A DNA stretch of 17,180 nucleotides, from positions 1-17,180 of the forward strand of contig JBEKDF010000051.1 in the NCBI GenBank assembly GCA_050014495.1, written 5' to 3'. Origin of the DNA: Candidatus Bathyarchaeia archaeon. GTDB lineage: Archaea; Thermoproteota; Bathyarchaeia; TCS64. Made by a program: the position numbers and the translations under genes. Below the pieces are notes generated by a model that was not told the origin of the DNA, searched no databases, and was given only the letters and a program-made list of their open reading frames with translations. Positions 1,421 to 17,180 of this stretch are shown here, one piece after another; the first letter of the stretch is position 1; each line of letters starts with the position of its first letter.

Positions 1421-1727
1421 CCAAAACACTCCAACGTCAAGTAAAGACGATATACACCGATAAAAGCGCGCACGCCTCATAACGTTGCAGCTAAGGATAA
1501 AGTGGTGCTTATCGAAGCCGCCCACAGTGTCTTTCAGGAAATTCGTGTACCTGAAACACTAGCGCGCCTCTGCGCCAATAGAAACCCATCAGATTGTTTA
1601 CCGGTATTCACTAGTAAAATTGTGAAGCATCCAAGTTTATAGCAGAACCATATAAAGTTCCTACTAGACGTAAGCTTAATAGTGCTTGTTTTTATGCATC
1701 GTACACAATCAATAGTCTAGAGGCTAC

Positions 1728-2144
1728 TTGAGTCATCTTCAACCAAACAGGGTAAGAGAATATTGGGACCAACTACAAGCTGAGCTTAAGAAGGGTAATC
1801 TGGATCTCGAGACGTGGGCGCTAGAACCAACCGGAGGACACTTCTACGCGCGAGCCGTCTCAGATCGTGTTTTCATAGAGGGGAAGGGAATCAAAGGTAT
1901 CCGTACTGTTGGGTTCCCAGAGTTCGAGAAGGCTGCTAAGTACTACAACGGCTTCATTAATGGGGAGGCTGGTATCAAACAGAAGCTGAGGGACGAAGTC
2001 GGTTACAATACTTCATACATAATTACGCTTCTCCACCATGCGCTCGAGGTCGAGGCTATCACCCCCATAGAATCTGAACCTGAGCCACCGAAGAAACCTG
2101 AACCAATCCGTGTTAGGCATTATAGAAGTAGGCGTGGTGGTTAA
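1728..2144 (+). CDS. Hypothetical protein (138 aa)
   Basis: TTG start after GAGG, protein-like composition, TTTATG/AT-rich box upstream, T-run at 2162-2169 downstream. Confidence 0.7.
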   Translation: MSHLQPNRVREYWDQLQAELKKGNLDLETWALEPTGGHFYARAVSDRVFIEGKGIKGIRTVGFPEFEKAAKYYNGFINGEAGIKQKLRDEVGYNTSYIITLLHHALEVEAITPIESEPEPPKKPEPIRVRHYRSRRGG

Positions 2145-2413
2145 AGTATAGGAAAGCCCAATTTTTTTTAAATGGACTGAGCAATAATATAGAAACGTGT
2201 CTCTTCTAAGTCAATCATCATCAGAATTTTGCCATGATTCTTAGCTTTCGCTCTTCTATCGGATAAGCGCTAGTCGGTATATTCATGCCAGATTTGAGGC
2301 TCACGATGAAATCTCCCCCATTTATTTTATTTGGGTTCTTCTCCTGCATTCTCTCTATTCTTTCGTAAACACTCAACGCCATGCCACCCGCCGTTTTATC
2401 AATCACCCGCGGC

Positions 2414-2659
2414 TCAAACCTTGACTTGGTTAAACGCCCCGCATTTTGGGCACTTGTAGACGGCGTTTGTGACTTGCATCCGGAGAAGAGACTTCAATAA
2501 TACATGATCACACTGACCACACACGTAGTTCAGGGCGCCTCTACCTGAGACGAATGGCTCCATCTTTTTCTCTTTCGGAGAATTATCTTTGGTAAGGAAC
2601 GTGCCTGCTGTCGGTAATATCGTAAGAACCACCATTTTGAAAGTAAATATGTGATCCAT
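2414..2659 (-). CDS. Small zinc-ribbon protein (paralog A)
   Basis: CGQC...CPKC; GGAG upstream; clear similarity to ORF 3283-3519. Confidence 0.82.
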   Translation of the reverse strand: MDHIFTFKMVVLTILPTAGTFLTKDNSPKEKKMEPFVSGRGALNYVCGQCDHVLLKSLLRMQVTNAVYKCPKCGAFNQVKV

Positions 2660-3282
2660 GTAATCTCCAACTTATAGTATGGCTTCGCTTTATATAAACG
2701 ACGGTGTAAAAAGCTGATAGTTTAAATCCATTTTTTTAATTAATTTATGAAATATAAATGCACTTTTTACCTAGATCTATGACTTATAGCAAGTGCTGTA
2801 CAGACAAAGTCTATGCTCGTGCCATATTAAAAATCAGAACTCATGTTTCAACAAAGGAGCAAAACAAAAACACACTGAAGTCTATATCTTCGCGTGCTTT
2901 CTCTTCTTTTTATCCTTTTTCGGTAGCACTATTTTCCTCAAAACGATGACCTCCCTAATTGCTGTTTAAGGGGCAGACCCAGAGACCACGGGATATCACG
3001 AACGAAGAACTTCATAAAATCTCGGCTAATACTCACCGGCCCTCTCATTTAAAGATGCGTTAATGACCTTTCTATAGAATTGTGTTACTATTATCCTATT
3101 ATTTTTCTGCCTATCTGATTGATATACGGCGAGAAGCTCGAGTATTGGGATCTACATGGTATTGTTGCTAATTGTTTTAAATTTCAATGTGTAAGAAGTA
3201 TCTTTTTTGATATGGTTAATATAATCCCCACGCGACTATATATGACGAGGGATATAACTTAAACAATCAAAACACATTTAAG

Positions 3283-3519
3283 ATGAGGATTTTACCATCG
3301 AAACCAATTGATGGCACGATATTCAGTAAAGATAATTTCAATCAGGAGAAGAAGATGGAGCCTTTCGTGATCGGTGAAGGAGTCATCGATTATCAATGTG
3401 GAAGCTGTGGTCACTATATGCTCAGATCTCTACGCTGGGGGCAGGTTACCCAAGCAGTCTACAAGTGTCCGAAGTGCGGGAATTATAACCAGATAGAACC
3501 AATCGTGAGAAAACACTAA
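3283..3519 (+). CDS. Small zinc-ribbon protein (paralog B)
   Basis: CGSC...CPKC; shares KDN, EKKMEPFV and QVTxAVYKCPKCG with ORF 2414-2659. Confidence 0.82.
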   Translation: MRILPSKPIDGTIFSKDNFNQEKKMEPFVIGEGVIDYQCGSCGHYMLRSLRWGQVTQAVYKCPKCGNYNQIEPIVRKH

Positions 3520-3685
3520 ACACTGATTCCCTTGGATTAGGTTCCAAACAAGCTCATTTTAAAGACAGTATTCCTGCAAGTAAGAAGTCTAATATTAAAT
3601 AGGCAGCTGCGTGAAAAAGGGGTTAATTACGAACGGTAAGCTCACTGCATCCTTGGCGAGAGTTTTTAATTTGCCTGATAATAAC

Positions 3686-3786
3686 TTTATTAGCGCGGCC
3701 GTTTCAAATTAGGCGGTTGAGGGACGTTACGCGGGCCCCAGTTGGATAGCTTCTGACCTAACGCCCAAGAGATCGAGCCCTCGCCA
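3686..3786 (+). promoter_or_regulatory. TATA box plus structured 5' leader of the L35Ae-like gene
   Basis: TTTATTA at 3686-3692; stems GAGGG(3719-23)/CCCTC(3778-82), GGC/GCC and CGTTA(3725-29)/TAACG(3759-63), closing 2 nt before ATG 3788. Confidence 0.4.
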
Positions 3787-3787
3787 A

Positions 3788-4075
3788 ATGGATGCGAGAA
3801 AAATGGAGTATAAGGGCATAGTCATGAGCTACGGTGTGGGCGCAAAGATGCAGTATCCACACAGGATGATAATCATGGTCCCTGGGGCAATACCAAGCGA
3901 AGCCAGGGGACTAGTAGGATCGACGGTTGCCTGGCCATACGACGACCCGAAGATCTACGGCAGGATTACGCGGTTCCATGGCGTCCGAAAAGGCTACTTA
4001 TTAGCGACATTCAAGAAGGGTCTCCCGGGAGACTCCATCGGAAAAGCCGTAAAGATAACGAAAAAGGAAGTTTAG
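3788..4075 (+). CDS. rpl35ae: 50S ribosomal protein L35Ae-like protein (copy 1)
   Basis: KGIVMSY..G..MQYP, LVG..VAW, GRITRFHG...G...A.FKKGLPG..IG..V match the L35Ae pattern. Confidence 0.8.
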   Translation: MDARKMEYKGIVMSYGVGAKMQYPHRMIIMVPGAIPSEARGLVGSTVAWPYDDPKIYGRITRFHGVRKGYLLATFKKGLPGDSIGKAVKITKKEV

Positions 4076-4076
4076 A

Positions 4077-4099
4077 ACGCTCCCCGAATCGGTGAGCGT
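4077..4099 (+). terminator. Hairpin directly after the rpl35ae-like stop codon
   Basis: ACGCTC/GAGCGT outer stem with CCG/CGG inner pairs; no U-tract, so function is uncertain. Confidence 0.3.
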
Positions 4100-4403
4100 A
4101 TGTAAGTTTCGCTGCGCGGGATGAGATAATCACGGAAGTGCAATATTCTAAATAGTAGTTTTATTGAAAGCAATTACTATGAAACTCGGATTAAGTATTT
4201 TCCAGTTAAACAGCCTTGTTTCATGACTATTATCTGGTGATTACCCCCCGGGCCGTGGATATCACTATATAGAGTGTATGGGAAGGTTATAATGCCCTTT
4301 AAATTGGTTATACCTCAGAAAGGTGAGGAAAAGATTCAGGGATTCATTATCGAATAATTGGGGGTAAAGGCATTAATGTATCCATGGTGAGTTCGATCCT
4401 TGT

Positions 4404-4424
4404 GTCGTGGGTTTGAATCCCACC
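4404..4424 (+). other. tRNA T-arm-like fragment (not a full tRNA)
   Basis: GTCGTGGGTTTGAATCCCACC: 5-bp stem GTGGG/CCCAC and loop TTTGAAT, one change from canonical TTCGAAT; no acceptor stem or D-arm found. Confidence 0.4.
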
Positions 4425-4440
4425 GAGAAAATAATGGATC

Positions 4441-4470
4441 AGAAGATTTACCAAACTTGGTAAAACTTCT
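4441..4470. repeat. 30-bp near-perfect palindrome
   Basis: AGAAGATTTACCAA-AC-TTGGTAAAACTTCT; arms match at 13 of 14 positions. Confidence 0.75.
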
Positions 4471-4622
4471 AAAGTCTCTCCTCGATCTCTAAGGCGCGCG
4501 CGTCCTGGCTCGGCGCTCCCTCCCCTGGCTCACCCTCTACATGGCGTGGGCCTACAAGCTCCTAATCCTGGGAGCAATCTACCTCTGCTCCTCATATCCT
4601 ATGGATCGGCGCATGCACGCCC

Positions 4623-5027
4623 TTATTCTCCCGGCGCCTTCATCATTTTGGAAACTGACGCGTGTGAGTCCCCCTTCTCGGAGCGCAGCGCCTCCTCTAC
4701 CCCGACCCATCTCCCGTTTAAATGGCGTGCAATTACACGCCGACACCTCGGGCAGAAGAGCTCTCTGACGCCACCGACTCCGCTCAGCGTGGTCTCCTCC
4801 GTGCAGTGGATCTCCGTGCCGCATGCGGGGCAGACCGCCGCCAACACACGCTTATCGAGCCGCATGGAGTCCGTTACCTCGCCAAAGTCGTAGCCGCACA
4901 CGCGGCACCGATTCTTATCCTCGTCTCCCGCATTGGTCGCCGCAACGGGTTCACGCCACTCCCCGCAACTGGGGCAGAAGAGGAAGCCGACGTATGTTCT
5001 CTTTAGCCTCAACCCACCGTGCGACAC
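4623..5027 (-). CDS. Multi zinc-ribbon protein (four CxxC motifs)
   Basis: CPSC, CRVC, CPAC, CPRC; the only overlapping frame here with coherent motifs; start codon uncertain (GTG 5027 or TTG 5012). Confidence 0.8.
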   Translation of the reverse strand: MSHGGLRLKRTYVGFLFCPSCGEWREPVAATNAGDEDKNRCRVCGYDFGEVTDSMRLDKRVLAAVCPACGTEIHCTEETTLSGVGGVRELFCPRCRRVIARHLNGRWVGVEEALRSEKGDSHASVSKMMKAPGE

Positions 5028-5230
5028 TTTCCCTCAATATGGATGTTTAATGAACTATTATTATCTTTTAATGTGTGCAAAGAAACCAAAATCAAACCAT
5101 GAAAAGCAGACTCTTAGATGAGTAGGTTGGGCCGAACCCATCAACCGATGAGTCCATATTTTATGGGTTTGTTGGCTTGGAGGCAGTCTTGAGAGCCATT
5201 CGTCCGCGCGCGCTATCCAAGAACCCCTCA

Positions 5231-5389
5231 ACTTTCCCAAATTCGTGTATGGGATGGACCGTGCCCCTCAGGACGAGAGCAACATGCACGAAATCACACA
5301 AAGGTTCAAAGGCTTTGGGAAGTCACAGCAATGACGTAATCGTGAAATCAAGCTAGCACGGGTCTATCCATCCCTCGCATAGTGGGCAC
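5231..5389. ncRNA. Candidate structured non-coding element
   Basis: Several long complementary segments with pseudoknotted or alternative pairing (see findings); no ORF of 60 aa or more. Confidence 0.4.
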
Positions 5390-5512
5390 ATAGGGAAAAT
5401 ACTAAACAATGGGCATAAATAAGTTTTATTTCGTATAATATACAATATATTTTGGAATAATTTTATATTATAGGCAGAAAGTTAGTAAATCCTATACCTG
5501 GTGGATATGTGA

Positions 5513-6496
5513 TTGCATAGAGAGCGGCTGCAGGAAGAGCTAAGCCTGAGATACAGGGATCTCAAGAAGCCCGAGTTCAAGGCAGTAATGAGGATTCAGG
5601 ACGAGCTACTGTCAGCCATGAGAGACCACCTGCGTAATGAGGGGTTCATGGAGATCCTCGCCCCCATAATCGGGCCGGTGACCGACCCCGGAATAAGGGG
5701 GGCACAACAGGTCAGCTTCGACTACTACGGCACCAAGTTCAAGGTGATGAGCAGCATGATCCTCTACAAGCAGATGGCCGTCAACAGCCTCGATCGAGTC
5801 TTCGCCCTGAGCCCAAACATCAGACTCGAGCCCATAGAGACACTGGAGACGGGGCGCCACCTCACCGAGTTCAGGCAACTCGACCTCGAGGTGGCGAACG
5901 CCGGCTACCACGATGTCATGGCCATAGGAGACAGCTTAGTGACCTACGCCATAAAGAGGATCAAATCAAGGTGCGCCGACGAGCTTAAGACCCTCCGGAG
6001 GAGGCTCAGGACGCCCAGGCCCTCATTCTTGAAGATCACCTACAACGAAGCCGTGGAGTTACTCCTAGAGAAGGGTTACAGTGGAAAGCAGGGAGAGGAG
6101 ATCCCCTGGGAGGTGGAGGCCGAGCTGTCGAGGAGCTTCGGGGATTTCTTCTGGCTTATCGACTACCCGAAGACGGCGCGTGGGTTCTATGACCGTGAGG
6201 ACGAGGATCGCCCGGGGGTTCTGAGGGACTTCGATCTCTTCTACCCCGAGGGATACGGCGAGGCAGTCAGCGGCGGGGAGAGGGAGTACAAGTACGAGAG
6301 GGTGGTCGCGAGGATGTCATCCACTGGCGAGGCGCCGGAGGCGTACGGGTGGTACCTGGAGATGCTGAGGGATGGGTTGAGGCCTTCAGCCGGCTTCGGC
6401 ATAGGAGTGGAACGCCTAACGAGGTACGTCTGCGGGCGGGAGTACGTTTGGGATGCCGTACCCTTCCCTAAGGTCCCGGGGATCCCCTCACCCTAA
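5513..6496 (+). CDS. asnA: Archaeal-type asparagine synthetase (AspRS/AsnRS catalytic-core paralog without anticodon domain)
   Basis: TDPGIRG, SSMILYKQ, SPNIRLE...TGRHLTEFRQLDLE (motif 2), GEAVSGGERE, PSAGFGIGVERL (motif 3); only 327 aa. TATA-like TTTATA at about 5462. Confidence 0.88.
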   Translation: MHRERLQEELSLRYRDLKKPEFKAVMRIQDELLSAMRDHLRNEGFMEILAPIIGPVTDPGIRGAQQVSFDYYGTKFKVMSSMILYKQMAVNSLDRVFALSPNIRLEPIETLETGRHLTEFRQLDLEVANAGYHDVMAIGDSLVTYAIKRIKSRCADELKTLRRRLRTPRPSFLKITYNEAVELLLEKGYSGKQGEEIPWEVEAELSRSFGDFFWLIDYPKTARGFYDREDEDRPGVLRDFDLFYPEGYGEAVSGGEREYKYERVVARMSSTGEAPEAYGWYLEMLRDGLRPSAGFGIGVERLTRYVCGREYVWDAVPFPKVPGIPSP

Positions 6497-6682
6497 TTAT
6501 AAGCGCGCGCGTTGACTATAGTCGCGCGCTGTGGGAGATACCGAATAGATGCAGTTTCAACCCCTATGCGTGCGAGATGAGGAGGAACGGAGCTTGACTA
6601 GACTGGGGCCAGACCAGCGCGCGCGCTAAAAAATAGGGTCTAGTTATCCTACCGCGCGCGCGATAAAGCTGTATCCAAATTC

Positions 6683-7042
6683 TCATTCCGTTAAGAAGTC
6701 GAGCTCTTTTTCAGGTATTCCCTGTGCTCCCCCGTGTTCTATGGCGTCCTTCCACGTTCCCCTGTCGTCCCTCTTGAGATCAAATTGTTTATCGCAGTAA
6801 ACAACTAGGATCTTGTTCCTCTTCCAGAAATGGGAGTACCAGCCCCTCAAGACAAGAGGCTGTAGGGCGTCTATCTCTTGCCTCGAGCATTTCACGTTAT
6901 AGATGTGCCACCTGCCGATGTTACCCTCGTAGTCTATCGCCATGTCATCCCTTGTTATGACTGCTTTGAAGACCGAAAACCCTTTGATTACGGTCAGATC
7001 ACTTAGTCCCTCGGCGATTATGATTTCCTTCCAGTCCTTCAC
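6683..7042 (-). CDS. Hypothetical protein (119 aa)
   Basis: GTG start after GGTGAG; Trp/His-rich motifs WHIY, GWYSHFW, GIPEKELDF. Confidence 0.78.
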   Translation of the reverse strand: MKDWKEIIIAEGLSDLTVIKGFSVFKAVITRDDMAIDYEGNIGRWHIYNVKCSRQEIDALQPLVLRGWYSHFWKRNKILVVYCDKQFDLKRDDRGTWKDAIEHGGAQGIPEKELDFLTE

Positions 7043-7193
7043 GTTCTCACCGAACCCTCCATGAACGCGATGCGCGCACGCTTTCCAACTTCCGTGGCAA
7101 CGATTATGATATACAAAGTTAACCCTTTAATTTTCATTTACCAAAGACAAAAATAAATAGTATATTATGAAAATTATAAATAGGCGATGGTAG

Positions 7194-7398
7194 TTGGCGA
7201 AACTCGGGGAGAAATGGCTCCCTAGAGGAGATACAGAACCAGTAGTTGAAATGCCATCTGAAAGAATTTGTTTTGCATGCCTTAAAAACAATTATCAACT
7301 TCTGTGATTCAAAATGTTGTACAAAGAGGTTAGAGAGTAATTATTGTGCTTTATGTGAGGATTGTTGGAACGATAGAAAAAACTGCCAGCGATATTAA
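7194..7398 (+). pseudogene. Small Cys-rich protein with apparent +1 frameshift
   Basis: TTG-AKLGEKW...ICFACLK, then removing one A from the A5 run at 7284-7288 gives TIINFCDSKCC...CALCEDCW...CQRY*; 9 Cys in 67 aa; TTATAAA upstream. Confidence 0.5.
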
Positions 7399-7655
7399 AT
7401 TGAACTGTATGCTACCTTGAAGACTGTCGACCCATTTTTACAGTCTACGGATCAACCGAATACTTAACAGAACCTTAAAAGGAAGGAAAATTATGGTTCG
7501 CGCGCGTGAGAGATACGTAAATAAAGGCAGGATCTAATTATTTTGCGCGCGCGGTCAACTTGTCGCTGTAGCCATTTTAAGCGGGTTTATACCGTAGACC
7601 GTAAGAACAATAAGTGCCATTCTAAGCTTTCATCTTAAAAGATACTAGAGCCAGA

Positions 7656-7872
7656 ATGAAGAAAGGGAGCTCGATAAGAAAATAAGAAAAATGTTTAAAC
7701 AGAATATCCGGAAAAAGAAGCATAGCAAAACCAGGGTTAAGGCGATCGTTGCAGCAAGGGTAACCGCAGCCAAAACCCTGAAAAAAAATGATGCGCTCAG
7801 CCTCAGACAATAACGAAGAAGCGTTACGTGGAGCTGCGAGAGCGTCTCAAGGGAGCCTTAGAGGAGGGTTGA
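7656..7872 (+). pseudogene. Possible small basic protein upstream of tbp, broken by two apparent -1 indels
   Basis: MKKGSSIRK / MFKQNIRKKK...DALSLRQ / ITKKRYVELRERLKGALEEG* join if one A is added at about 7680 and at about 7810; the stop lies 3 nt before the tbp ATG. Confidence 0.3.
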
Positions 7873-7875
7873 GGA

Positions 7876-8448
7876 ATGAGCGAAACAAGCCCTTACGATG
7901 TTAAGATACAGAACGTCGTCGCCTCGGCGTCCCTCGACCAGAAGATAAACCTCCTCGACATCATGAAGGTCTTTAGGACCGTGGAGTACCGTCCCAAGCA
8001 ATTCCCTGGCCTGGTCTTCCGCCTGAAGAAGCCGAAGACGGCAACCCTCATCTTCGGCAGCGGTAAGATGGTCTGCACGGGGGCGAAGTCGGAGAAGCAG
8101 GCTAGGAGCGCGGTGAATAAGGTCGTCCGTGAACTCAAAACGAACGGGATCATCATCCTCGGGAAGCCGAAGATAGTAATCCAGAACATGGTTGCCTCCG
8201 CTAACCTACACGGCAAGATCGACCTAGAGACCGCCGCGGACATCATGGACAACGTCATGTACGAGCCCGAGCAGTTCCCGGGCCTCATCTACAGGATGAC
8301 GGAGCCTAAGGTGGTTCTGCTGCTATTCGCTTCGGGGAAGCTCGTGATCACCGGGGCCAAGAGGGAGGAGCAGGTCCATGAGGCCGCGGAGAAGGTCAGG
8401 GCCACCCTCATCGATTATGATCTACTTTTTCAAGGAGAGGATCTCTAG
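7876..8448 (+). CDS. tbp: TATA-box-binding protein
   Basis: Two repeats IQNVVASA...YRPKQFPGLVFR...LIFGSGKMVCTGAKS and IQNMVASA...YEPEQFPGLIYR...LFASGKLVITGAK. Confidence 0.98.
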   Translation: MSETSPYDVKIQNVVASASLDQKINLLDIMKVFRTVEYRPKQFPGLVFRLKKPKTATLIFGSGKMVCTGAKSEKQARSAVNKVVRELKTNGIIILGKPKIVIQNMVASANLHGKIDLETAADIMDNVMYEPEQFPGLIYRMTEPKVVLLLFASGKLVITGAKREEQVHEAAEKVRATLIDYDLLFQGEDL

Positions 8449-8834
8449 CTCGAGCGCGCGCGTATAGTTGCCTTGGAGTAATTCGAAGTATCCATGCTCT
8501 ATACCCGCTAGTCCCACGAGAACGCCTAACGTTGATGCGACTACTTTCGTCGCTTTACTTGGCGAACGTGCAGCCATTCACGTTTCACGGTTGAGTATCG
8601 GGTGGAACTCAGGATAAGACTATAGCCCCAAACGCGCGCGCTAGACTTACTACCCACGCCTGGGCCCAGGGTGAAAGTAAAGAGACTTCTCGATTCGCGC
8701 GCGCGAACAAATCAAAGGTGATACTAATTTAACTAATCACACTAAGCGGTAAATTGTTACTACACTCAACTCCTTTGATTCTGTGTGTATTCATAAATAC
8801 TATGATATTGGTTTCATTATAATTGAATATACAT

Positions 8835-9263
8835 TTAGCACTTTAGTTGTTTTTCTCTGGGTTGCTCTTCTTTAAGCACAAAACGCTTACAGGAATCATA
8901 ATAGGTAGCTATCCTCTTTGTGGCAGTTATAACTTTTACTTCACTATCTCTAGCACAAAGATGGATTAACTCGTGTACATTGACACAAGTAAGCTCATTG
9001 ATAATAGCAACCATTAGATTGTCATAATTTATTGAATATATGATTTCACCTGACTCTGTTTCAGTTGCCCTTTTACAGTTAAAACAACACTGACAAAAAT
9101 TGAATAATGGCATATGGTCTTCACTAATTATATTTTCAGGGAAAACAAAGACTTCTCCAGTTTCACGAAAGGCAACACCGTTGGCACGACATGGATCAAA
9201 TTCGTATTTGTGTGGGAAGTCTTTCACCAATATGAATTCCGTGTGAATTGATCTGGTGGTCAT
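8835..9263 (-). CDS. Hypothetical protein with Cys cluster and HExxH motif (~142 aa)
   Basis: Probable start MTTRSIH at 9263; CQCCFNC and VHELIH; AT-rich. Confidence 0.65.
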   Translation of the reverse strand: MTTRSIHTEFILVKDFPHKYEFDPCRANGVAFRETGEVFVFPENIISEDHMPLFNFCQCCFNCKRATETESGEIIYSINYDNLMVAIINELTCVNVHELIHLCARDSEVKVITATKRIATYYDSCKRFVLKEEQPREKQLKC

Positions 9264-9330
9264 CTTGAAGCCTTTAACATTTAAAGTCAGAGGTGTTATT
9301 AAACTTGATAAAAAAGGTGGAAGGTTAAAC

Positions 9331-9447
9331 ATGGGAAAGAAAAAGGGAAAAAAAGACAAGCGTTCAAAAAATCTAAAAAATAAGTTGTCTCTCTTATCTG
9401 ATTGGAAGAGGAAACAGCGTTCGAATGTCAAAAAGTTTGTACAATAG
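9331..9447 (+). CDS. Small Lys/Arg-rich protein (38 aa)
   Basis: ATG 9331 after AGGTGGAAGG; MGKKKGKKDKRSKNLK...; divergent from the 9263 ORF across an AT-rich spacer. Confidence 0.4.
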   Translation: MGKKKGKKDKRSKNLKNKLSLLSDWKRKQRSNVKKFVQ

Positions 9448-9486
9448 GATGGAGGTGGTGGAAGAACGTGCGCGCGCTCCCAATCC

Positions 9487-9615
9487 TTACCTAAGAGTTA
9501 ATGTCTTCAGTTTCCTTTTGTCATATTTTTCCCAGAATCCATCTTCAATACAGATTACAGGTTTATCCACTATTGAGTCCAGTATCCGGCATGGGTAGTT
9601 TGGACATTTATTCAT
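9487..9615 (-). CDS. Small Cys-containing ORF (42 aa)
   Basis: MNKCPNYPCRILDSIVDKPVICIEDGFWEKYDKRKLKTLTLR*; same frame as 9637-9807. Confidence 0.45.
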   Translation of the reverse strand: MNKCPNYPCRILDSIVDKPVICIEDGFWEKYDKRKLKTLTLR

Positions 9616-9636
9616 TAGACAGATGGGGGTGCTCTT

Positions 9637-9807
9637 TCATTTCTTAGGTATCACCGTTTCTCCTAATCTCCAACTGCTATAATCCACATACCATCCGTTC
9701 TTCTCTGCTTTTTCAGCGTGATCTTTGCAGACGTAGAAATGTGCCACTAATCCGGGAACTACTCCCACTGCGGGTTTACCGCAATCGCTGCAAACTGGTT
9801 TAGTCAT
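9637..9807 (-). CDS. Small zinc-finger protein (56 aa, CxxC...CxxH)
   Basis: MTKPVCSDCGKPAVG...FYVCKDHAE...; GGAG upstream; ATGA overlap with the upstream ORF; below the ORF-track cutoff. Confidence 0.7.
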   Translation of the reverse strand: MTKPVCSDCGKPAVGVVPGLVAHFYVCKDHAEKAEKNGWYVDYSSWRLGETVIPKK

Positions 9808-9875
9808 TTATCTGACTCCATTAGCGTTTTTTGTAATGGGTTTTCTTTAGTGTTTTCTACTTCGGGCTTCTTCAT
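9804..9875 (-). CDS. Mini-ORF (23 aa)
   Basis: MKKPEVENTKENPLQKTLMESDK*; purine-rich SD-like tract upstream; ATGA coupling to the next gene. Confidence 0.35.
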   Translation of the reverse strand: MKKPEVENTKENPLQKTLMESDK

Positions 9876-9970
9876 TTCGTTCCTTCCCTTCTCCTCACGC
9901 GCGCGCTGTGGCAAGATAGCCTTCTTAGCCTTCCCGGTTAAACCCAGCCGCTTCCATATCTCTGTCTGGA

Positions 9971-10234
9971 TTAGTTAGTGGTCTCTTTGTATACTTCGTC
10001 TCCTCTTCGGACTCTGTCTTGTACCTTTAGCCCGACGAAGTCTCCGGGGACCGCCTCTTCCACGGGTTTATGCTCTATCTGCATGGACTTGACCAGCTGG
10101 GTGAAGTTGCTGGTGGCGCCTTTCACTGTTATCTGGTCCCCGACTTTCAAGGTGGCTGTTAACTCTACGACGGCTACGCCTATATTGGAGTAGTAGTGGC
10201 TTACATCTCCAGCTTTCAATGAATCTTTAGGCAT
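9971..10234 (-). CDS. Translation elongation factor-like beta-barrel protein (EF-Tu domain 2 / U32 C-terminal-like)
   Basis: G.VSHYYSNIGVAVVEL...LKVGD.I.VKG.T.NF.Q.VKSMQIEH..VEEA..GD.VGLKV..RVR.GD.VY. Confidence 0.85.
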   Translation of the reverse strand: MPKDSLKAGDVSHYYSNIGVAVVELTATLKVGDQITVKGATSNFTQLVKSMQIEHKPVEEAVPGDFVGLKVQDRVRRGDEVYKETTN

Positions 10235-10658
10235 GGATAAAAATTGATGCCTTGGTATTAAATGGTTTCTTGGATGCAGTCAGGGTTATCGGAGAGACCA
10301 CGTGGATTATTATACGATATCCCGGTGTTTGTTCGAGTTTAGGGTGGACAGTTGGTAAGAAGAGGTGCTTAGGTGGCGTTCGACGTTTCGTCGTTCCAAG
10401 CCCCTGTCGTATGTTTAGGCTGGGTGCACGTTTGGTGAAGGTATTGGTTACTTAATATTTGATGATGCTGCGTTATGTGTCCATCTGAAGGCCTACCCTG
10501 TGGAGCTCCTCGAGGTGCTGCTGGTTCATCTCGTCGTTGCTGGTGACGAGCGCGCGCAGCATATCTCGACTGCGTCGGGGTGTACGATGACTATGAAAAG
10601 ATAAGGCGGCAGACTAGGCTGAAAGGATATGTCCGCTGACCGCAGATACTAAAGTCCT

Positions 10659-11159
10659 TCAGACTATCCCGCTTCTCTCCTTCGGGTTGGCCCGGTAACG
10701 TCTCTTTTCTCGGTGGGCTTGCGCTGACTGCTCCGCCTTCTTCGCCTGGTCTGCTCGAGTCTTCATCTCGTCGGTCATTCCCGCTCTTTCCTTCCCCTGC
10801 TTTTCCAGCTTTCCGTATTGTGTGTCCATCGTCACACCCACGTAGTCGCCGACTGTTTCCCCGGACTTTTTCGACATCAGCATGCGACTCACGTACTCCC
10901 TCGTGAGCGGCGGGTAGCCCATGTTCACCACGGCTGCACTGTAACTCTCGTTCAGCTGCTTGAGAAGGCGTTCGTATAATGCCGACGTTATCTCATCCCT
11001 TTTCACCTTTTGGCCGTAAAGGTCTTTGAAATCTTTGCTAAGAAAATAACTCGTCACGGATTTTACTGTGTAGTCCGTTTTGTTCCCGTCTAGTATGTCC
11101 TCTGGCTTTTTCTTATTCTCCTTCTCCTTCGCAGAGTAAGCGAGCGCATGCGCGGACAT
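10659..11159 (-). CDS. Hypothetical protein (166 aa)
   Basis: Long ORF with charged, helical composition; TTTAAA box about 25 nt upstream. Confidence 0.7.
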   Translation of the reverse strand: MSAHALAYSAKEKENKKKPEDILDGNKTDYTVKSVTSYFLSKDFKDLYGQKVKRDEITSALYERLLKQLNESYSAAVVNMGYPPLTREYVSRMLMSKKSGETVGDYVGVTMDTQYGKLEKQGKERAGMTDEMKTRADQAKKAEQSAQAHREKRRYRANPKERSGIV

Positions 11160-11349
11160 ACATGAATAGCTATGAGATGAACTTTAAATCTCTGACATCG
11201 TTCGCGCGCATTCGCATCTGAGAACGATGAGCCTTTTTAGGCCGACTTCTTTTCTGCGTGTACGCGGCTAGCTGTCAGGTAGTTCTTAGAGATTCTGAGG
11301 AGGCGAATATGACAGGTCAGGGCTCTGCTCGCCCAGCTCCTTTGGAAGC

Positions 11350-11880
11350 CTAAGAAGTAACCCCTTTCTTCCTTCTAAACAATTCCCATGAATTTGTTTT
11401 CAAATTAAAAACCCATGGTCTCATTTCAAGACTATCAACCGTGTAAAACTCACGCTGTTTTTCAGCTAAATACAATATTGCTTGACGGTTTTCTTCTGGT
11501 ATGTTTAGAGCAAACCTATTCCCGAATTGATTTTTCAGTTTAAGATATTCTGGACATTCAGGGGCAAACGTGAAGCCCTCTTCTTTATCTATTAATTGAA
11601 GAGGAAAAGCCCGGCAGACTAAGGGTCTTTTATTATAAATCATGCATTTGTTGTCTTTTAAATGAATACATACATTCTCCGTATATTGTAATGTAAGTAA
11701 GTAGAATTTTTTCTTATCATTAGGATGAGTTCCTTTAGCTTGGCATGGTTTTATTAAATGATCAGGGAATAGAGGTATTTCCTCGGGGAGAAGAAGTAAT
11801 CCCGCAGTCACACCCGTGCCAAGTAATTCCCTGCAACATTTACCACAACCACTACAATTAAATCTAGGTTGTTTTTCCAA
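11350..11880 (-). CDS. YkgJ family CxxCxxCC zinc/iron-chelating protein
   Basis: FNCSGCGKCC, CIHL..NKCMIYNKRPLVCRAFP, CP; TTG start after GAGGAG; AT-rich. Confidence 0.88.
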   Translation of the reverse strand: MEKQPRFNCSGCGKCCRELLGTGVTAGLLLLPEEIPLFPDHLIKPCQAKGTHPNDKKKFYLLTLQYTENVCIHLKDNKCMIYNKRPLVCRAFPLQLIDKEEGFTFAPECPEYLKLKNQFGNRFALNIPEENRQAILYLAEKQREFYTVDSLEMRPWVFNLKTNSWELFRRKKGVTS

Positions 11881-11964
11881 ATACTTCTCTCCTCTAAATC
11901 AAATATTATTTTATACTGATCTAATCTATCTACCTTGGCTTTTTTCAGCAGACTTCCCTATGGT

Positions 11965-12180
11965 TTAGCCTGGAGTAAATGGTTCGAAGCCGCTATCCCG
12001 CTTCTTGGCTGGCTGACACGTCGTAACCTTCACGAGACCGGTCCTCCAAGAGTCAACCTTCTCTTCCTCGATACTGGAGTTCGCTAATCTATCCTTCAGC
12101 AGACCGTACTTCTCCTTCCCTAAAGCGTCCTCGAATCGCGCGCGACTATATCTTAATATGCATTCGGACAATTGAATCAA
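11965..12180 (-). pseudogene. Probable gene fragment / short hypothetical ORF
   Basis: Protein-like stretch RARFEDALGKEKYGLLKDRL... begins at the CG run 12137-12144; both ends look non-coding. Confidence 0.3.
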
Positions 12181-12187
12181 CCGTTAT

Positions 12188-12406
12188 ATGTCCTATTCTA
12201 AGGAAGGAAAATGGATTGTAAGGGGCTGGGTCACCGCCTCAGAGTGTTTTGGTTGTAGGAATAAACTTGGCCACAGGGTAGAGGAGGGGAAGATCTTCAT
12301 CCGTTGTAGGGACAATTGCAACTATCATCCACTGGACAAGGATAAGGTAAAAGGAACTGAGGATAATATTAAAGATAATAATAAAGGAGCTTTAAGTCAT
12401 TTTTAA
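12188..12406 (+). CDS. Small Cys-containing hypothetical protein (72 aa)
   Basis: CFGC...CRDNC; AT-rich TATA-like sequence upstream. Confidence 0.65.
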   Translation: MSYSKEGKWIVRGWVTASECFGCRNKLGHRVEEGKIFIRCRDNCNYHPLDKDKVKGTEDNIKDNNKGALSHF

Positions 12407-12538
12407 TAGAGGTTAAGCACGCACTTATTTTCGTTAAATAGTACTATTTTGTAGCTCCGTTTGGTTTCTACCTCAGTATTTGGTCTCCGATGGGTTTGGC
12501 TTCTACTACTTTATTGAGCGTGCACCCACGAATAAGAC

Positions 12539-12814
12539 TCACTGCTTTTTCAAGACGATTGTTATAGTGCTTACGTTCCTCATCCGCCCATCTGTAGATT
12601 CAAGCTCTTCGGTCCCAATCTCTATGTCCTCGACAGTGAGATCTTTAAGAAGCCTGCTCCTCGTCACCTCAACCACATCAACAGCGGTGCTTATGGCTCG
12701 GCCTCTCGCCTTGACCGCTACGCTGCCTCCCTTCTCCTGTAGCGATGTAATGACAGCTATGCAGTAGTTCATGATGGGCTTGCTTCCGATATAGACGACG
12801 TTTTCGACGGACAT
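12539..12814 (-). CDS. albA: DNA/RNA-binding chromatin protein Alba
   Basis: VYIGSKPIMNY, KARGRAISTAVDVVE, IEIGTEEL, NVSTI.I.L. Confidence 0.96.
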   Translation of the reverse strand: MSVENVVYIGSKPIMNYCIAVITSLQEKGGSVAVKARGRAISTAVDVVEVTRSRLLKDLTVEDIEIGTEELESTDGRMRNVSTITIVLKKQ

Positions 12815-12901
12815 TTGAAGCGTCGATTCGACTAGACGCGGCGATTAATTAAATCTTAGGTTAGAGTAAGTATAAGCATGTGTGTGTTTTTGGTACCTGA
12901 A

Positions 12902-13208
12902 TTAAATTCGAATATCTTTTTTCATCTTTATAATGGCTACTTTTCCCCCGAATGCTTGTCCCGGTAACCTCTTCTGAAAGCGAAACATCAGGTTTCCCCT
13001 TCTGCCGTGAAGACCCATTATTCTCCCAAATAATTTAGGATTTTTCTCAGGCCAGCCAATCCACCATCCAATGACCTTACTTGATTCATTGGACTCGAGA
13101 TTCATAACCTTAATAATGCCATTTCTAGGGTACTGCATTTTCATCCCAAAGACGATAATTCATAAAAACTCCGCGCGCGCGGCCTCCCGGTAAAGACGAG
13201 ATACTCAT
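12902..13208 (-). pseudogene. rpl35ae: L35Ae-like protein (copy 2) with apparent +1 frameshift
   Basis: ATG 13208 MSISSLPGGRARGVFMNYRL, one extra T at 13148-13150, then GMKMQYP...GRIMGLHGRRG..FRF.KRLPGQAFG; aligns with copy 1 KGIVMSYGVGAKMQYP. Confidence 0.72.
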
Positions 13209-13269
13209 CGGCCATAGCACTGATCAGCTGAAGAAGCTTCCCGCCCTTTTAAACGGTGTAGAAAAAGGG

Positions 13270-14169
13270 TTAGATATTTACGGTGAAGCTGAGCCTCCTG
13301 GCGAGCTCCTTGTAACGGTTCCTGATGGTGACCTCGGTCACCTGAGCCTCCTTCGCTATCTCGCCCTGGGTCCGGTGCTCGTTCGTTATCTGGCTCGAGA
13401 TGTAGATGCAAGCGGCCGCTATTCCTGGTGGCCCCCTACCGCTGGTAAGCCCTAGTTTAGAAGCCGTGCTAAGGATCGAGATAGCCAGCATCTCCGTCTC
13501 GCCCGTGAGGCTGAGCTTGTTCACTATCTTGCTTATGTAGCCCTGGGGGTTGACCTGCGGCACCTCCGAGTTGAGCTCACGGAGCAGGAACCTGTAGTTG
13601 CGGGCCGCCTCCTTCTTAGTGATGGTGGCGGCGAGGGCGACGTCCTCGAGGGTGCGTATGACGCTGCACTGCCTGCAGGCCATGTAGATGCTGGCGACAG
13701 CGACGCTCTGTATGGTCCTTCCCCTTATCAGCTGCTTCTGGAGGGCGCGCCGGTAGATCATGCTAGCGGTCTCTGTGACGTTCCTGGGCAGGTTTAGCTT
13801 GTAGGCGATCTTGCTCATCTCGCTCAGTGCGTGGACCAGGTTTCGCTGGGTTGAGTCACTGACATTGCTCCTCCTATTCCACTTCCTGAGCCTGTAGAAT
13901 TTCGCCCGCTCCTCTGGGCTGAGCCTGCGCCCCGACGCGCCTCTGTCCTGCCAGTCGATGGTTGTGCTGAGCCCCTTGTCGTGGATCGTCCAAGTCACCG
14001 GGGCTCCTACACGGGGAAGCTTATCCATCTGCTCCTGGTCGAACGCCCTCCACTCCGGGCCCTGGTCGATGAGCGTGGAGCTGATGACGTAGCCACAGCT
14101 CTGACAGACTAATTCGCCTGTGTCGCAGTCCCGTAGCAGATTTGAGCTTCCGCACTCGCTGCAAACCAT
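13270..14169 (-). CDS. tfb: Transcription initiation factor IIB (TFB)
   Basis: Zn ribbon CSEC...CQSC, B-reader GPEWRAF, HDKGLST, two cyclin repeats, C-terminal VTEVTIRNRYKEL. Start at ATG 14169 (or TTG 14193); TATA TTATAAG at 14244-14238. Confidence 0.97.
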   Translation of the reverse strand: MVCSECGSSNLLRDCDTGELVCQSCGYVISSTLIDQGPEWRAFDQEQMDKLPRVGAPVTWTIHDKGLSTTIDWQDRGASGRRLSPEERAKFYRLRKWNRRSNVSDSTQRNLVHALSEMSKIAYKLNLPRNVTETASMIYRRALQKQLIRGRTIQSVAVASIYMACRQCSVIRTLEDVALAATITKKEAARNYRFLLRELNSEVPQVNPQGYISKIVNKLSLTGETEMLAISILSTASKLGLTSGRGPPGIAAACIYISSQITNEHRTQGEIAKEAQVTEVTIRNRYKELARRLSFTVNI

Positions 14170-14262
14170 CTTAATACGTAGACTGGCTACCAAAGAACCA
14201 CTGCCGAGAAAGGCTATGATAAGAAAAAAAGCATAGCTTATAACTCTTATTGAGTCCGGTAG

Positions 14263-14439
14263 ATGGAGAGCCCCCAGGTCGACGTCGTCGAGGTCACCCC
14301 AGGCGGGGAGATCATCGAGTACGAGATCAAGCTTCCCCACCTCGGCAGGGAGGAGAGCGCCCGGGCGCTGCAGGGCACCTACATCGTCCGAGCGCGCGGA
14401 TTTATGGGACTCTTGGCGCTCAAGTTTTCACTTAGTTGA
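14263..14439 (+). pseudogene. Short ORF / 3'-truncated gene fragment (58 aa)
   Basis: MESPQVDVVEVTPGGEIIEYEIKLPHLGREESARALQGTYIVRAR with strong G/C third positions up to the CG run at 14392; divergent from tfb. Confidence 0.45.
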
Positions 14440-15087
14440 GTACTGAGTCGGATCGCTCACGCCGGCTTCTCTGAACGCTCTCACCCGGTTTAGGCAGGAC
14501 TCGCATTGCCCGCAGTGCAATGGGCCCGAGAGGTAACATGACCACGTTTGTTCGAGGGGGACCTTAAGCTCAATAGCCTTCTTGATGACCTCTGACTTGG
14601 GTATGTCGCTGAACGGAGCATCGATAGTGATCTCATGATCGGTGCCGAGCCTCGCCGCTTCCTCGAATGCCTTGTAGAACTCCCTGCGGCAGTCTAGGTA
14701 GAAGGGCTCGTCGCTCGCATGGGCTCCGTAGAATATGTGGCTGGCGCCAATCGACTCTGCGTAAGCTACGGCCACCGAGAGGAAAACGCCGTTCCTGAAC
14801 GGCACGATAATAGGCTTGGTGAACTCCGACGTAACCTCAATATCTTCATCCACTAGACTCGTCACACCTTGATACACGGCCCTTAGAGGTGAGAGGTCGA
14901 CAACGAGGTGCCCCACCCCAAGTCTAGCTGCTAAGAGCCTCGCCCTCTTAATCTCCACCTGCGCCTTTTGGGCGTAGCCGAAGGTAATCGCATGGACATC
15001 GTATCCCTGCGCCTTCGCCCAGTAAGCTGTGGTAACCGAATCGGGGCCCCCGCTCAGGACAACGACGCATTTACTCACTCCCACCAC
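14428..15087 (-). CDS. queC: 7-cyano-7-deazaguanine (preQ0) synthase
   Basis: PP-loop LSGGPDS, VPFRNGVFLS, Y(L)DCR, TWSCY...HCGQCESC..R Zn motif. Confidence 0.95.
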   Translation of the reverse strand: MVGVSKCVVVLSGGPDSVTTAYWAKAQGYDVHAITFGYAQKAQVEIKRARLLAARLGVGHLVVDLSPLRAVYQGVTSLVDEDIEVTSEFTKPIIVPFRNGVFLSVAVAYAESIGASHIFYGAHASDEPFYLDCRREFYKAFEEAARLGTDHEITIDAPFSDIPKSEVIKKAIELKVPLEQTWSCYLSGPLHCGQCESCLNRVRAFREAGVSDPTQYSTK

Positions 15088-15094
15088 CTCAGCT

Positions 15095-15558
15095 TCACCT
15101 CAGCTTCCCCTCAACAAGCTTGAATAACATCGCTCCGAGGGCGTTAATTATCTGCTCGCTCACCAAGAGAGCGGGCAGAGTCACGAGCATAGGTAGGCCG
15201 AAGAGCTGCTCCAGCATCCAGGAAACACTCAGCGGTATGATGACTGCGATGACGACTCCACACGTGAAGTAACCTCTGCTGAGGCGCTTTGCCGCTTCGT
15301 AGCCCACTATTCCAGCAACCACACTCATGAACGGCATGAATAGTAGCTCGTAGGCACCCGCAAACGGGCTGAAGAGGTTCCCGACGACGACACCTAGGCC
15401 ATAGCCTAATGCTAAGAGCCTCATCCTCGTGATACCGGGCCTGAGGACGCCTGCGACCCTGAACTGCAGTGCGTAGAACGACAACGGAGCGAAAACGACG
15501 ACCATCGCGGCGTATAAAGCCGCGTATAACGCAACAGTGATATTTCTCTAGTCTCCAT
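15095..15558 (-). CDS. queT: QueT family 7-deazaguanine transporter, apparent -1 frameshift near the 5' end
   Basis: METREISL then VALYAALYAAMVVVFAPLSFYALQFRVA...GVVVGNLFSPF once one base is added at about 15535; AALY/P.SF..QFR/N.FSPF fit QueT; adjacent to queC. Confidence 0.85.
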
Positions 15559-15563
15559 ATCTT

Positions 15564-15627
15564 TGCCTCCCTCCACCGGGGTTTCTAAGGCGGAGTCGGG
15601 TGGGAGGCCCCACTCACCCGCCGAGGC
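15564..15627 (-). ncRNA. Candidate riboswitch-like leader of queT-queC
   Basis: Two hairpins plus two anti-SD segments complementary to the GGAGGC located just upstream of the queT ATG. Confidence 0.55.
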
Positions 15628-15863
15628 GATCATGGTAAGCCGGCTAAAGATAACCCTTGTTCAACCCAAACTAGTTGATAGTTGAAGAATCGCGAAGTAA
15701 CCGAGATCCGAGTCTAATAACGATCAATAATGCCTACGCAGATACGCGCTCGGACTGAGACGCAGATTTGATACTTTAGCGAACCCCGAATCTCGTACTT
15801 AGCTTAGCATCCGCTGGCCGGCGCGCACGCGCGATCGGGAAGAACATAAGCGCGCGCCGTTCT

Positions 15864-16733
15864 ATGGAGCTTTCGGCTTGGCCCGACTCAAGCCTAAACG
15901 CCGACAAGGTGACTGATTGGAGAATTAAGGAAGTTAAAAAGGACCTTAAGGAACACGATATAGAGGTCTCTGCCCTCGGCTACTACCCCAACTTCCTCGA
16001 GCCCAATAGTGCAAATGCTAAGGAGGCGACCAGGTACTTCTACAAGATTCTGGAGCTCGCCAATAGGATGGATGTAGACGTGGTCTGCACGTTCGCTGGG
16101 CGCCACCCCGATAAATCGATCAAGGAGAATATTCCCCTATTTGAAAAGGCCTTCATACCCTTCTGCGCTGAGGCCGAGAAACGTGGGATACGAATCGCTA
16201 TCGAGAACTGCCCAATGATGGACAGGTTTTACCTACGCGGAGAGAACATCGCTATAAGTCCCGAGGTATGGGATGAGATGTATAAGGTCGTCAAGTCCAA
16301 GACACTAGGCATTGAGCTCGATCCATCTCACATGGTCTGGCAGGGCATCGATTACGTACAGGCAATCTATGACTATGGTGACCGTATCTTCCACATCCAC
16401 GCCAAAGATATGGAGATTAACCATAGAGTCCTAAAGCGCGTCGGCATCTTAGGGCAGGCCTTCGGGGAGACCGTGGGCCTCGGCTACGGTTGGTGGCGTG
16501 CGCGCCTCCCAGGTTGGGGAGAGATGGATTGGCCAAAGTTCCTCACTGCCCTCGTAGAGACCAACTACAAGGGCAATATCGACATAGAGCATGAGGATGA
16601 TGTCTTTGCTGCCGCTTATGCGAAGGAGCACATAGAGTCCGAATCAGGCATCGTAGAGACTTATGGGCGCGAGGAGAAAGGACTCATTTTGGGATACAAT
16701 ACTCTATCAAAACTAATGCCAGTTGAGGACTAG
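15864..16733 (+). CDS. Sugar phosphate isomerase/epimerase (xylose isomerase-like TIM barrel), probably missing its N-terminus
   Basis: SALGYYPN, IAIENCPM, LDPSH, HIHAKD, RLPGWGE.DW, IEHED; begins at ELSAWP, which normally follows the first strand and helix. Confidence 0.88.
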   Translation: MELSAWPDSSLNADKVTDWRIKEVKKDLKEHDIEVSALGYYPNFLEPNSANAKEATRYFYKILELANRMDVDVVCTFAGRHPDKSIKENIPLFEKAFIPFCAEAEKRGIRIAIENCPMMDRFYLRGENIAISPEVWDEMYKVVKSKTLGIELDPSHMVWQGIDYVQAIYDYGDRIFHIHAKDMEINHRVLKRVGILGQAFGETVGLGYGWWRARLPGWGEMDWPKFLTALVETNYKGNIDIEHEDDVFAAAYAKEHIESESGIVETYGREEKGLILGYNTLSKLMPVED

Positions 16734-16886
16734 TTCCTAAGCTTTTACGCCTCGCTTCTACTTCATTGTGATATGTTAATGTTCAACCCATTGTTTTAGG
16801 TGCAAGTGCGATCCATATGATTATTGCCAAAAGGTATTGTGTAATTTTTTAAAAAAATGAGTGAAAAAAAACGTTATTGGCTTTTA

Positions 16887-17180
16887 TCACTTGGGAAATA
16901 GCACCGTGTTAATTACATGAATAACGCCGTTGTCAGCCATCACGTTCGCTTTTAAAACGTATGAACTGTCATTAAGGAGCAGGTATCTGTGCCAGTGAAC
17001 AGGGTCGCTGGCGAATGCTGGATCGTTTCTACCTAGTTCGTCCTTATCACTGGCGTCGATCGTTATATCCTGTCCCTGAACTGTCTTCGCTGAAGTAAGT
17101 TTTACAGCGTCATCAGCCATGACTCTTCCCGGGACTACGTGGTAAAGTAAAATGTTCTTCAGTTTGGGGATATCTTTTAG
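16887..17180 (-). CDS. Fasciclin (FAS1) domain protein, 3' part; runs off the window end
   Basis: LKNILLYHVVPGRV, KTVQG..ITI, ADNGVIHVINTVLFP; frame open to position 17180. Confidence 0.92.
   Translation of the reverse strand, partial: LKDIPKLKNILLYHVVPGRVMADDAVKLTSAKTVQGQDITIDASDKDELGRNDPAFASDPVHWHRYLLLNDSSYVLKANVMADNGVIHVINTVLFPK

Follow-up and report, generated by a model that had tools for sequence, protein, structure and literature searches.

Here we analyse a stretch of 17,180 nucleotides from Candidatus Bathyarchaeia archaeon (assembly GCA_050014495.1, contig JBEKDF010000051.1, positions 1 to 17,180), hereafter the window, and offer an explanation for the runs of alternating C and G that punctuate it. 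The window is contig C51 of a peat archaeon's genome of 3.1 Mb in 92 contigs, which we call G000. These runs, or scars, look like new letters set down where DNA was cut, lost or pasted in, and thus like products of joining and not its cause. Judging from sequence comparisons, they were likely written by a small archaeo-eukaryotic primase (AEP) of 268 amino acids, for which a short word in its own pseudoknotted RNA is the predicted template.

A preliminary description of the window had reported 16 runs of 8-10 bases where fewer than one was expected, lying outside the intact genes, flanking AT-rich blocks and in two cases just past a stop codon, and the observation stands. There are exactly 16 maximal alternating C/G runs of 8-10 bases, all within 4494-15857, against a mean of 0.37 and a maximum of 3 in 300 dinucleotide shuffles. 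The 17 open reading frames (ORFs) of the window that we took as genes contain none of them; the asnA stop at 6496 is followed by a run at 6503, and the tbp stop at 8448 by one at 8454. The proposed genome-wide enrichment also survives Markov correction: GCGCGCGC occurs 1024 times in G000, 17-fold more than the 60.5 copies expected from a third-order model. The genome holds 459 runs of at least eight bases (192 of 8, 144 of 9, 111 of 10, five of 11 and seven longer), a profile with a plateau from 8 to 10 and a sharp fall beyond, and the runs vary in both length and phase. Contig C51, with 0.93 runs per kb, is among the densest. Most runs lie in non-coding DNA; ORFs with a homolog in the complete genome G021 span 58% of the bases and contain 31 of the 459, and one run sits in frame inside a conserved gene. 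The GC content is 0.39-0.43 within 30 bp of the runs and 0.49 at 400-800 bp. A run-terminal C is followed by A in 345 of 551 cases and by AT in 155. Beyond base frequencies, the left and right flanks show no complementarity at positions 1-3 (position 4 gave p 0.015, uncorrected), and synthesis by fold-back of a palindrome is therefore unsupported. As to chimeric joins, a possibility raised in the preliminary description, five contigs of an independent run, X3 (records 19, 20, 21, 23 and 24), bridge all 16 runs with zero letter differences, so the window is not a chimeric assembly. Its genes are archaeal, and the titled relatives of one G000 protein are mostly from Bathyarchaeia.

The runs had also been said to coincide with breakpoints, and they do: 98 of 1455 ends of intragenomic duplications lie within 5 bp of a run, against 3-13 in six shifted controls. 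What lacks support is the view that the runs were there beforehand as a signal for recombination, for a methyltransferase or for binding, like the cyanobacterial palindrome HIP1. We tested 887 run flanks in G000, having first removed those adjacent to insertion sequences (IS), and 475 in G021. For 93 of the 887, an abutting parent was found elsewhere in G000, and 88 of these 93 parents have no run; in the complete genome G021, the same is true of 17 of the 26 mapped parents. Parent and copy differ by 0-20% at the flanks. A search for C5 methyltransferases (PF00145) gave no match in G000, G016, G021 and G079, four of the five scar-rich genomes searched.

Several junctions can be followed in the window itself. 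A captured segment at 7553..8460 on the forward strand, carrying an intact tbp of 190 aa, is 87% identical to C10:46736-47643 and has a run at both ends: at the left edge (7545..7553) the C10 parent has no run, and at the right edge (8454..8462), 5 nt past the stop, it has only CGCG. A loose end of the related strain X16 lies at 8449, close to this right-edge run. In the same strain, another neighbour (place 7870, on the opposite strand) is attached to the DNA from position 9473 onward, and the 8-nt run at 9470..9477 stands at that junction. A broken copy on C14 has a run-free relative in the window, the reverse-strand stretch 10612..11121. Of that stretch, 321 bp (10674-10994) are missing from the C14 copy, in which a CG run stands both at the deletion and at the left end of the copy. 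Runs fill three deletions, of 169, 321 and 457 bp, one of them inside an IS copy, and in an AAA-ATPase paralog a run substitutes 7 bases for 7. Of 34 flush junctions, 21 have a final parent base that itself fits on to the repeat (p 6e-6, with 25% assumed for chance), which is what priming in register by the DNA end would produce. Among 88 steps from parent base to new letter, G>C leads with 15, followed by C>G and T>G with 13 each.

The candidate writer is encoded at C53:7058-7864 of G000. This 268-aa protein has 91 database matches, itself included, and scores above the cut-off of PF01896. Residues D99 and D101, S148-G149-G152-H154 and D205, which make up the DxD, SGxxGxH and D motifs, are invariant in 39 sequences of the family, and a structural model (pLDDT 88.8) finds the archaeal primase subunit PriS (1g71) as its best Foldseek match, with an E-value of 5e-12 and a TM score of 0.60. 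Near-full-length genes were found in three of 56 genomes (G000, G103 and G109), all scar-rich, and gene fragments in six more scar-rich genomes and one scar-poor one; weak AEP frames of about 230-305 aa occur in scar-rich and scar-poor genomes alike. In G000, fragments of the gene on C13, C22 and C24 end at runs. At loci L217, L220, L224 and L226, the AEP gene begins directly within or after a coding stretch that we take, from the look of its sequence, to be RadA-like.

The candidate template lies next to most relatives of this gene. Across the AEP loci surveyed, 33 from genomes and 80 from metagenomes, most near-full-length genes carry a conserved element of about 90-150 nt at their 3' end. 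Its predicted layout has a stem P1 formed over a long range, then the hairpin P2, then a single-stranded word with A's after it; a further stem, P3, crosses P1. The stems are flanked by CUGA and GAUGA boxes, which resemble kink-turns. Pairing of the pseudoknot reaches 95% in two alignments, of 16 and 34 sequences, a percentage favoured by the derivation of the structure from the same sequences. In the smaller alignment 10 of the 18 pairs, and in the larger one 15, have changed on both sides, and none of the 500 shuffles and none of the slid controls did as well. Five of the RNA loci were compared with Rfam and gave no match. G000 has eight matches to the RNA, seven reading GGCGCAT and one GGTGCAT. 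Two covariance models, seeded with RNAs from G000 and with others that match the G103 and G109 copies letter for letter, were run on 28 scar-rich genomes (at least 56 pattern matches) and 28 scar-poor ones (at most 9). At E below 1e-4 the RNA was found in ten scar-rich and two scar-poor genomes; relaxing the limit to 0.01 raised the scar-rich count to 15 and left the scar-poor count at two. The word in both RNA-positive scar-poor genomes lacks GCGC.

Some further observations concern the RNA copies of G000. Those at L019:5949-6622 (C53), C56:4811 and C40:2506 overlap the 3' ends of small ORFs from two families (93 aa and 98 aa), both with two members in the genome, and the ORFs of these families beside RNA copies have no Pfam match. 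A truncated copy at C24:44881 is cut off by a CG run past the first hairpin arm. Several copies share contigs with a repeat of about 40-46 bp that occurs well over 100 times, often about 600 bp apart, on C53, C74, C15, C24, C50, C75, C84 and others. A loose-pattern match in the window at 10478, listed with the 8-nt run at 10550..10557, was unconfirmed by the covariance model, and a non-coding element at C63:7955-8062, which resembled the template RNA, turned out to be the 3' end of an IS110 family.

As far as sequence can tell, the word of the RNA predicts the type of repeat found nearby and fits the scar edges of six genomes, two of them only post hoc. We grouped 58 loci by word and counted tracts of at least 7 nt in the locus flanks. 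The three GGCCG loci (7.1 kb) hold four (GGCC)n tracts of up to 12 nt and no (GC)n; the three AGCTAGCT loci (5.9 kb) hold three (AGCT)n tracts of up to 13 nt and one (GC)n; and the single TGCATGCA locus (2.1 kb) has (TGCA)n tracts of 15 and 12 nt. Ten (GC)n tracts, most of them T-ended, accompany the three CGCGT loci (7.3 kb), and the 35 GCGC loci (89 kb) have 48 (GC)n, four (GGCC)n, five (AGCT)n and six (TGCA)n. Because loci within a word group are probably kin, we count about three independent switches of repeat type. At the scar edges of G000, ATG, TAC, TAG and TTC occur 159, 41, 37 and 50 times; ATGCGC, the complement of its word GGCGCAT, gives the top edge, and AT at the edge is 3.0-fold over background. 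For five more genomes, the edges were predicted beforehand from the RNA copies read. Given in the same order, the counts are 69/13/23/63 in G016 (words GGCGCAT and ACGCAT; ATG 69 of 168), 73/23/26/93 in G011 (TGCGAA; TTC 93 of 215) and 10/2/199/3 in G099 (GCGCGCTA; TAG 199 of 214), and in these three genomes the prediction came true. In G103 and G109 the outcome was less favourable, as set out below; each has one CGCGTA and one CGCGCTA copy, and CGCGCTA fits a TAG edge, a fit that was found post hoc. The two results are not independent of the repeat counts, because the RNAs of these genomes are identical to those of two CGCGT loci.

The filler, the microhomology, the linkage of gene and RNA, the fold and the match of word and repeat can be read from the sequences, and from them we infer every catalytic step of the following mechanism. 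The AEP would hold its RNA, and the 3' end of a broken DNA would pair with one or two template bases. The paired end would then be extended, so that a GGCGCAU template yields ATGCGC, after which the enzyme would slip back two bases and add further GC. Any two ends could in this way gain self-pairing GC tails, which would anneal and be filled in and ligated by host enzymes, with the length of the tail setting the cap near 10. Were the word of the RNA swapped from GGCGCAU to CGGCCGUA or UAGCUAGCU, the product would follow the word. Gene and RNA would be mobile and often lost while the scars remain, and insertion sequences would later use these scars as landing sites.

A number of observations weigh against this mechanism. 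A four-base GCGC template does not by itself yield a cap at 10, and we know of no established case of RNA-templated DNA synthesis by an AEP. The 13 loci with ACGC or GTGC (31 kb) are mixed, with eight (GC)n and nine (TGCA)n tracts, and the parents that were mapped are those of (GC)n runs. The edge counts of G109 (10/75/152/19) bore out the prediction in part, since TAC was not the top class, and in G103 (10/21/203/7) the TAC prediction failed; G016 and G011 have a strong second edge class that the copies read (2/4 and 2/10) do not explain. Near-full-length AEP genes are missing from 25 of the 28 scar-rich genomes. The AEP gene of G000 has no RNA at its own 3' end, and the closest two copies are found 2.4 and 2.7 kb further downstream, on the same strand, where the 93-aa and 98-aa ORFs end, so that the enzyme would have to act in trans; the close homolog loci L250, L251, L253 and L255 likewise have no RNA at the gene end. 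Eighteen of the 28 scar-rich genomes lack a strong RNA match, and a fair scar-rich count is 7 of 25, because three of these genomes were among the seeds, and kin are not independent. Finally, no search found either the AEP gene or the RNA in the complete scar-rich genome G021, a gap that loss after scarring or a divergent system would explain.

The scars themselves are widespread. In the family of G000, GCGCGCGCG is present in 22 of 24 members; in the class as a whole (301 genomes), at least six families include members with high counts; and a single-contig genome shows the same scar pattern. The complete G021 has 182 pattern matches. Other possible writers were tried and set aside. Ku and LigD-Pol, each found in 16 of 41 genomes, do not track the scars and are absent from scar-rich G021, and both are present in G001 and G010 with 0-1 matches, although the GC content of 33% in the 222-kb G001 sample weakens that half of the comparison. 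PolX occurs in 33 of 56 genomes, including all 23 family members tested, scar-free ones among them, and was not found in the single-contig scar-rich genome G079. A second AEP of 439 aa has a strong match in only five of 41 genomes, Prim-Pol (PF09250) has none in five genomes, and the reverse-transcriptase family RVT_1 has none in G000. A search of the proteins and non-coding elements common to G000 and G021 found no writer. On the side, we note that the 439-aa PriS-like AEP lies at L018:4048-5367 (C20 of G000) beside a 114-aa neighbour, and that G000 has a complete set for non-homologous end joining (NHEJ) at L017:6207-9464 (C3), comprising LigD-Pol, Ku and a ligase with a phosphoesterase-like tail, which among 41 genomes is found mostly in this genus. 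The scar-free G001 is classified in the same genus as G000, yet its 222-kb sample (L196-L215) has 33% GC against 49%, and no clear alternative filler was seen in that sample.

Among the alternatives, the one that fares best would have the scars written without an RNA template, by the replicative primase PriSL or another end-joining polymerase, with the tails annealing through a few GC pairs; we consider this unlikely. Run-free parents would be equally well explained in this way, and PriS is the sole AEP that we found in the complete scar-rich G021. The accessible part of a study of Saccharolobus describes PriSL as an archaeal AEP that acts at double-strand breaks, where it extends 3' ends, anneals strands by means of 2-4 GC pairs and shows a preference for GC-forming insertions (PMC12019639). 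The GC microhomology has its counterpart here in the 21 of 34 flush junctions that share at least one base with the run. On the other hand, the indels reported in that part of the study are mostly of 1-2 bp, and the enzyme is described there as a replicative primase with no RNA partner mentioned (PMC12019639), whereas the scars are defined fillers of 8-10 bases with lineage-specific edges. Untemplated writing predicts neither these edges (ATG, TAG, TAC or TTC) nor the switch to GGCC, AGCT or TGCA; PriS-like matches occur in scar-poor genomes as well, and the end-joining polymerases LigD-Pol and PolX fail to track the scars, as does Ku.

A second alternative, which we regard as distinctly improbable, accepts a different writer and takes the AEP-RNA unit for a mobile element whose word evolved as a guide that recognizes scars, as the non-coding ends of IS110 elements here appear to do. 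Its appeal lies in two IS110 families that carry GCGCGCG-like words in those ends, which may be bridge RNAs, and that are located at runs; the RNA described here is multi-copy and moves to the ends of other genes, and many scar-rich genomes have no AEP-RNA unit. A guide, however, would require a separate writer for each repeat type, its partner protein here is a polymerase with intact catalytic residues and not a recombinase, and the word reads as complementary to the scar edge, in the manner of a template. As to the IS110 copies themselves, those at L175:777-2090 (C48:5777-7089 of G000) and C17:57461-58773 have GCGCGCG in the non-coding end before the transposase and abut the terminal repeat of an element with a DDE-type transposase. 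The second family (L170:1900-2120 and L177-L190) has a conserved 3' non-coding end with GTGCGCGCGAT on the gene strand, ends at GCGCGC, and is represented in G000 by this end only, without a transposase.

It could also be argued that insertion sequences left the runs behind as footprints: with a GCGCGC target and a target duplication of 4 bp, excision would leave a run of exactly 10 bases, and rearrangements driven by the elements would bring the runs to junctions. The DDE element does lie between GCGCG and CGCGC at all four copies whose two ends were read, with one flank substituted. But only 31 of the 459 runs were flagged as IS-adjacent, the target is missing from the breakpoint in 88 of 93 parents, deletions within IS copies are filled by runs too, and neither the edge letters nor the non-GC repeats would be accounted for, which makes this account very improbable. 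The signal role envisaged in the preliminary description survives in a secondary sense, in that the DDE element and two IS110 families sit in the runs, and not as a property that the runs had beforehand.

That the runs are a selected HIP1-like signal, or break sites prone to form Z-DNA, is scarcely credible: the strong over-representation of the palindrome and its coincidence with breakpoints speak for such a role, while the run-free parents, the small share of runs in conserved ORFs (31 of 459), the variable length and phase, the lack of a C5 methyltransferase match in four of the five scar-rich genomes searched and the gain of runs together with rearrangement, as at the tbp segment and in the filled deletions, speak against it. 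Chimeric joins or another assembly or library artefact have a negligible chance of being the cause, for although many contigs end at IS ends beside runs, the contigs of another run bridge all 16 letter for letter, the same pattern occurs in a single-contig genome and in several families, and the flanks are 0-20% diverged from their parents.

The templated mechanism that we favour can be placed beside several known systems. HIP1, in the portion of the source on which we draw, has a fixed sequence of eight bases, which is conserved within coding DNA and associated with methyltransferases (PMC5861425). The runs resemble it as a GC-rich palindrome that is more than tenfold over-represented, and they differ in varying in length, avoiding conserved genes and being missing from the parents. 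In archaeo-prokaryotic NHEJ, Ku acts together with the LigD polymerase (Pol), a phosphoesterase (PE) and a ligase. The likeness is an AEP polymerase at DNA ends, and the full set in G000 may carry out the final fill-in and ligation; the difference is that Ku and LigD-Pol do not follow the scars, and to our knowledge no sequence-defined filler is known from NHEJ. Telomerase consists of TERT and the telomerase RNA. Shared with it would be a short single-stranded template in a structured RNA, bounded by a stem or pseudoknot, and its predicted repeated copying onto a DNA 3' end that has paired with it beforehand; the protein here, however, has the AEP/PriS fold and not that of a reverse transcriptase, G000 having no RVT_1 match, and the products are short self-complementary internal fillers instead of long terminal arrays. 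The available text on DRT10 describes a reverse transcriptase with an adjacent non-coding RNA whose variable template dictates a tandem repeat, and a protein-primed synthesis of free repeat DNA for phage defence (bioRxiv 10.1101/2025.10.16.682844). As far as that text goes, the likeness is a prokaryotic polymerase paired with an adjacent template RNA, and the differences are that the enzyme here is an AEP and that the repeat ends up in the chromosome at junctions. Measured against telomerase and DRT10 together, the unit has no protein of the reverse-transcriptase family, and it has a structured RNA whose word matches the repeat, with the exceptions given above.

The remaining runs of the window are the following, all bridged by X3. 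A 9-nt run at 4494..4502 lies in non-coding DNA (bridged by record 19), another at 5205..5213 lies upstream of asnA, and the run 6 nt past the asnA stop extends over 6503..6511 (9 nt). Two runs of 10 nt at 6617..6626 and 6653..6662 and one of 8 nt at 7499..7506 precede the tbp segment. Beyond it, similarity to C78 and C15 stops at 8633, where a 9-nt run (8633..8641) begins, and further runs lie at 8696..8705 (10 nt), 9898..9906 (9 nt) and 12137..12144 (8 nt). The 10-nt run at 13172..13181 lies between tfb and the second of two L35Ae-like ribosomal protein genes, and the 8-nt run at 15850..15857 directly before an isomerase-like gene, with shorter runs at 15821 and 15828. The two L35Ae-like genes, at 3788-4075 (forward) and 12902-13144 (reverse), both score under the cut-off of their family. 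Also present in the window are extra copies of tbp, tfb and Alba, whose paralogs lie on C10, C40 and C7; the Alba gene at 12539-12867 has an 89% copy at C7:70555-70883, with the similarity stopping two bases short of a CG run. Two small zinc-ribbon ORFs, similar and in opposite orientation at 2414-2659 (reverse) and 3283-3519 (forward), have weak family matches only. At the contig edge, 1..122 on the forward strand is the end of a DDE-type insertion sequence whose terminal repeat ends at 118 and is followed by CGCG.

Taking these comparisons together, we lean towards a broader reading, in which Bathyarchaeia carry a mobile, programmable end-joining ribonucleoprotein whose primase-fold enzyme reverse-transcribes a palindromic word from a kink-turned pseudoknot RNA onto DNA ends, as an analogue of telomerase. 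Such a ribonucleoprotein would give every end a universal sticky tip and so drive the capture and shuffling of genes; it would have evolved independently of telomerase, from the primase fold, and RNA-guided and DDE transposons would have come to use its scars as a niche. A search of the literature, with most subscription papers and all preprint supplements outside its scope, found no description of such a system. If true, it would represent a new route of double-strand-break repair, the first enzyme of the primase family with a template RNA of its own, and a second origin of telomerase-like repeat addition. The natural template variants GCGC, GGCC, AGCT and TGCA suggest that the tailing or joining of DNA ends may be programmable, and with a 268-aa protein and an RNA of about 95 nt, archaeal non-homologous break repair becomes testable. 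For the organisms themselves, the mechanism would explain the mosaic gene islands of uncultured Bathyarchaeia, most of whose searched lineages lack Ku, and the scars would date and map the events by which these genomes were rearranged.

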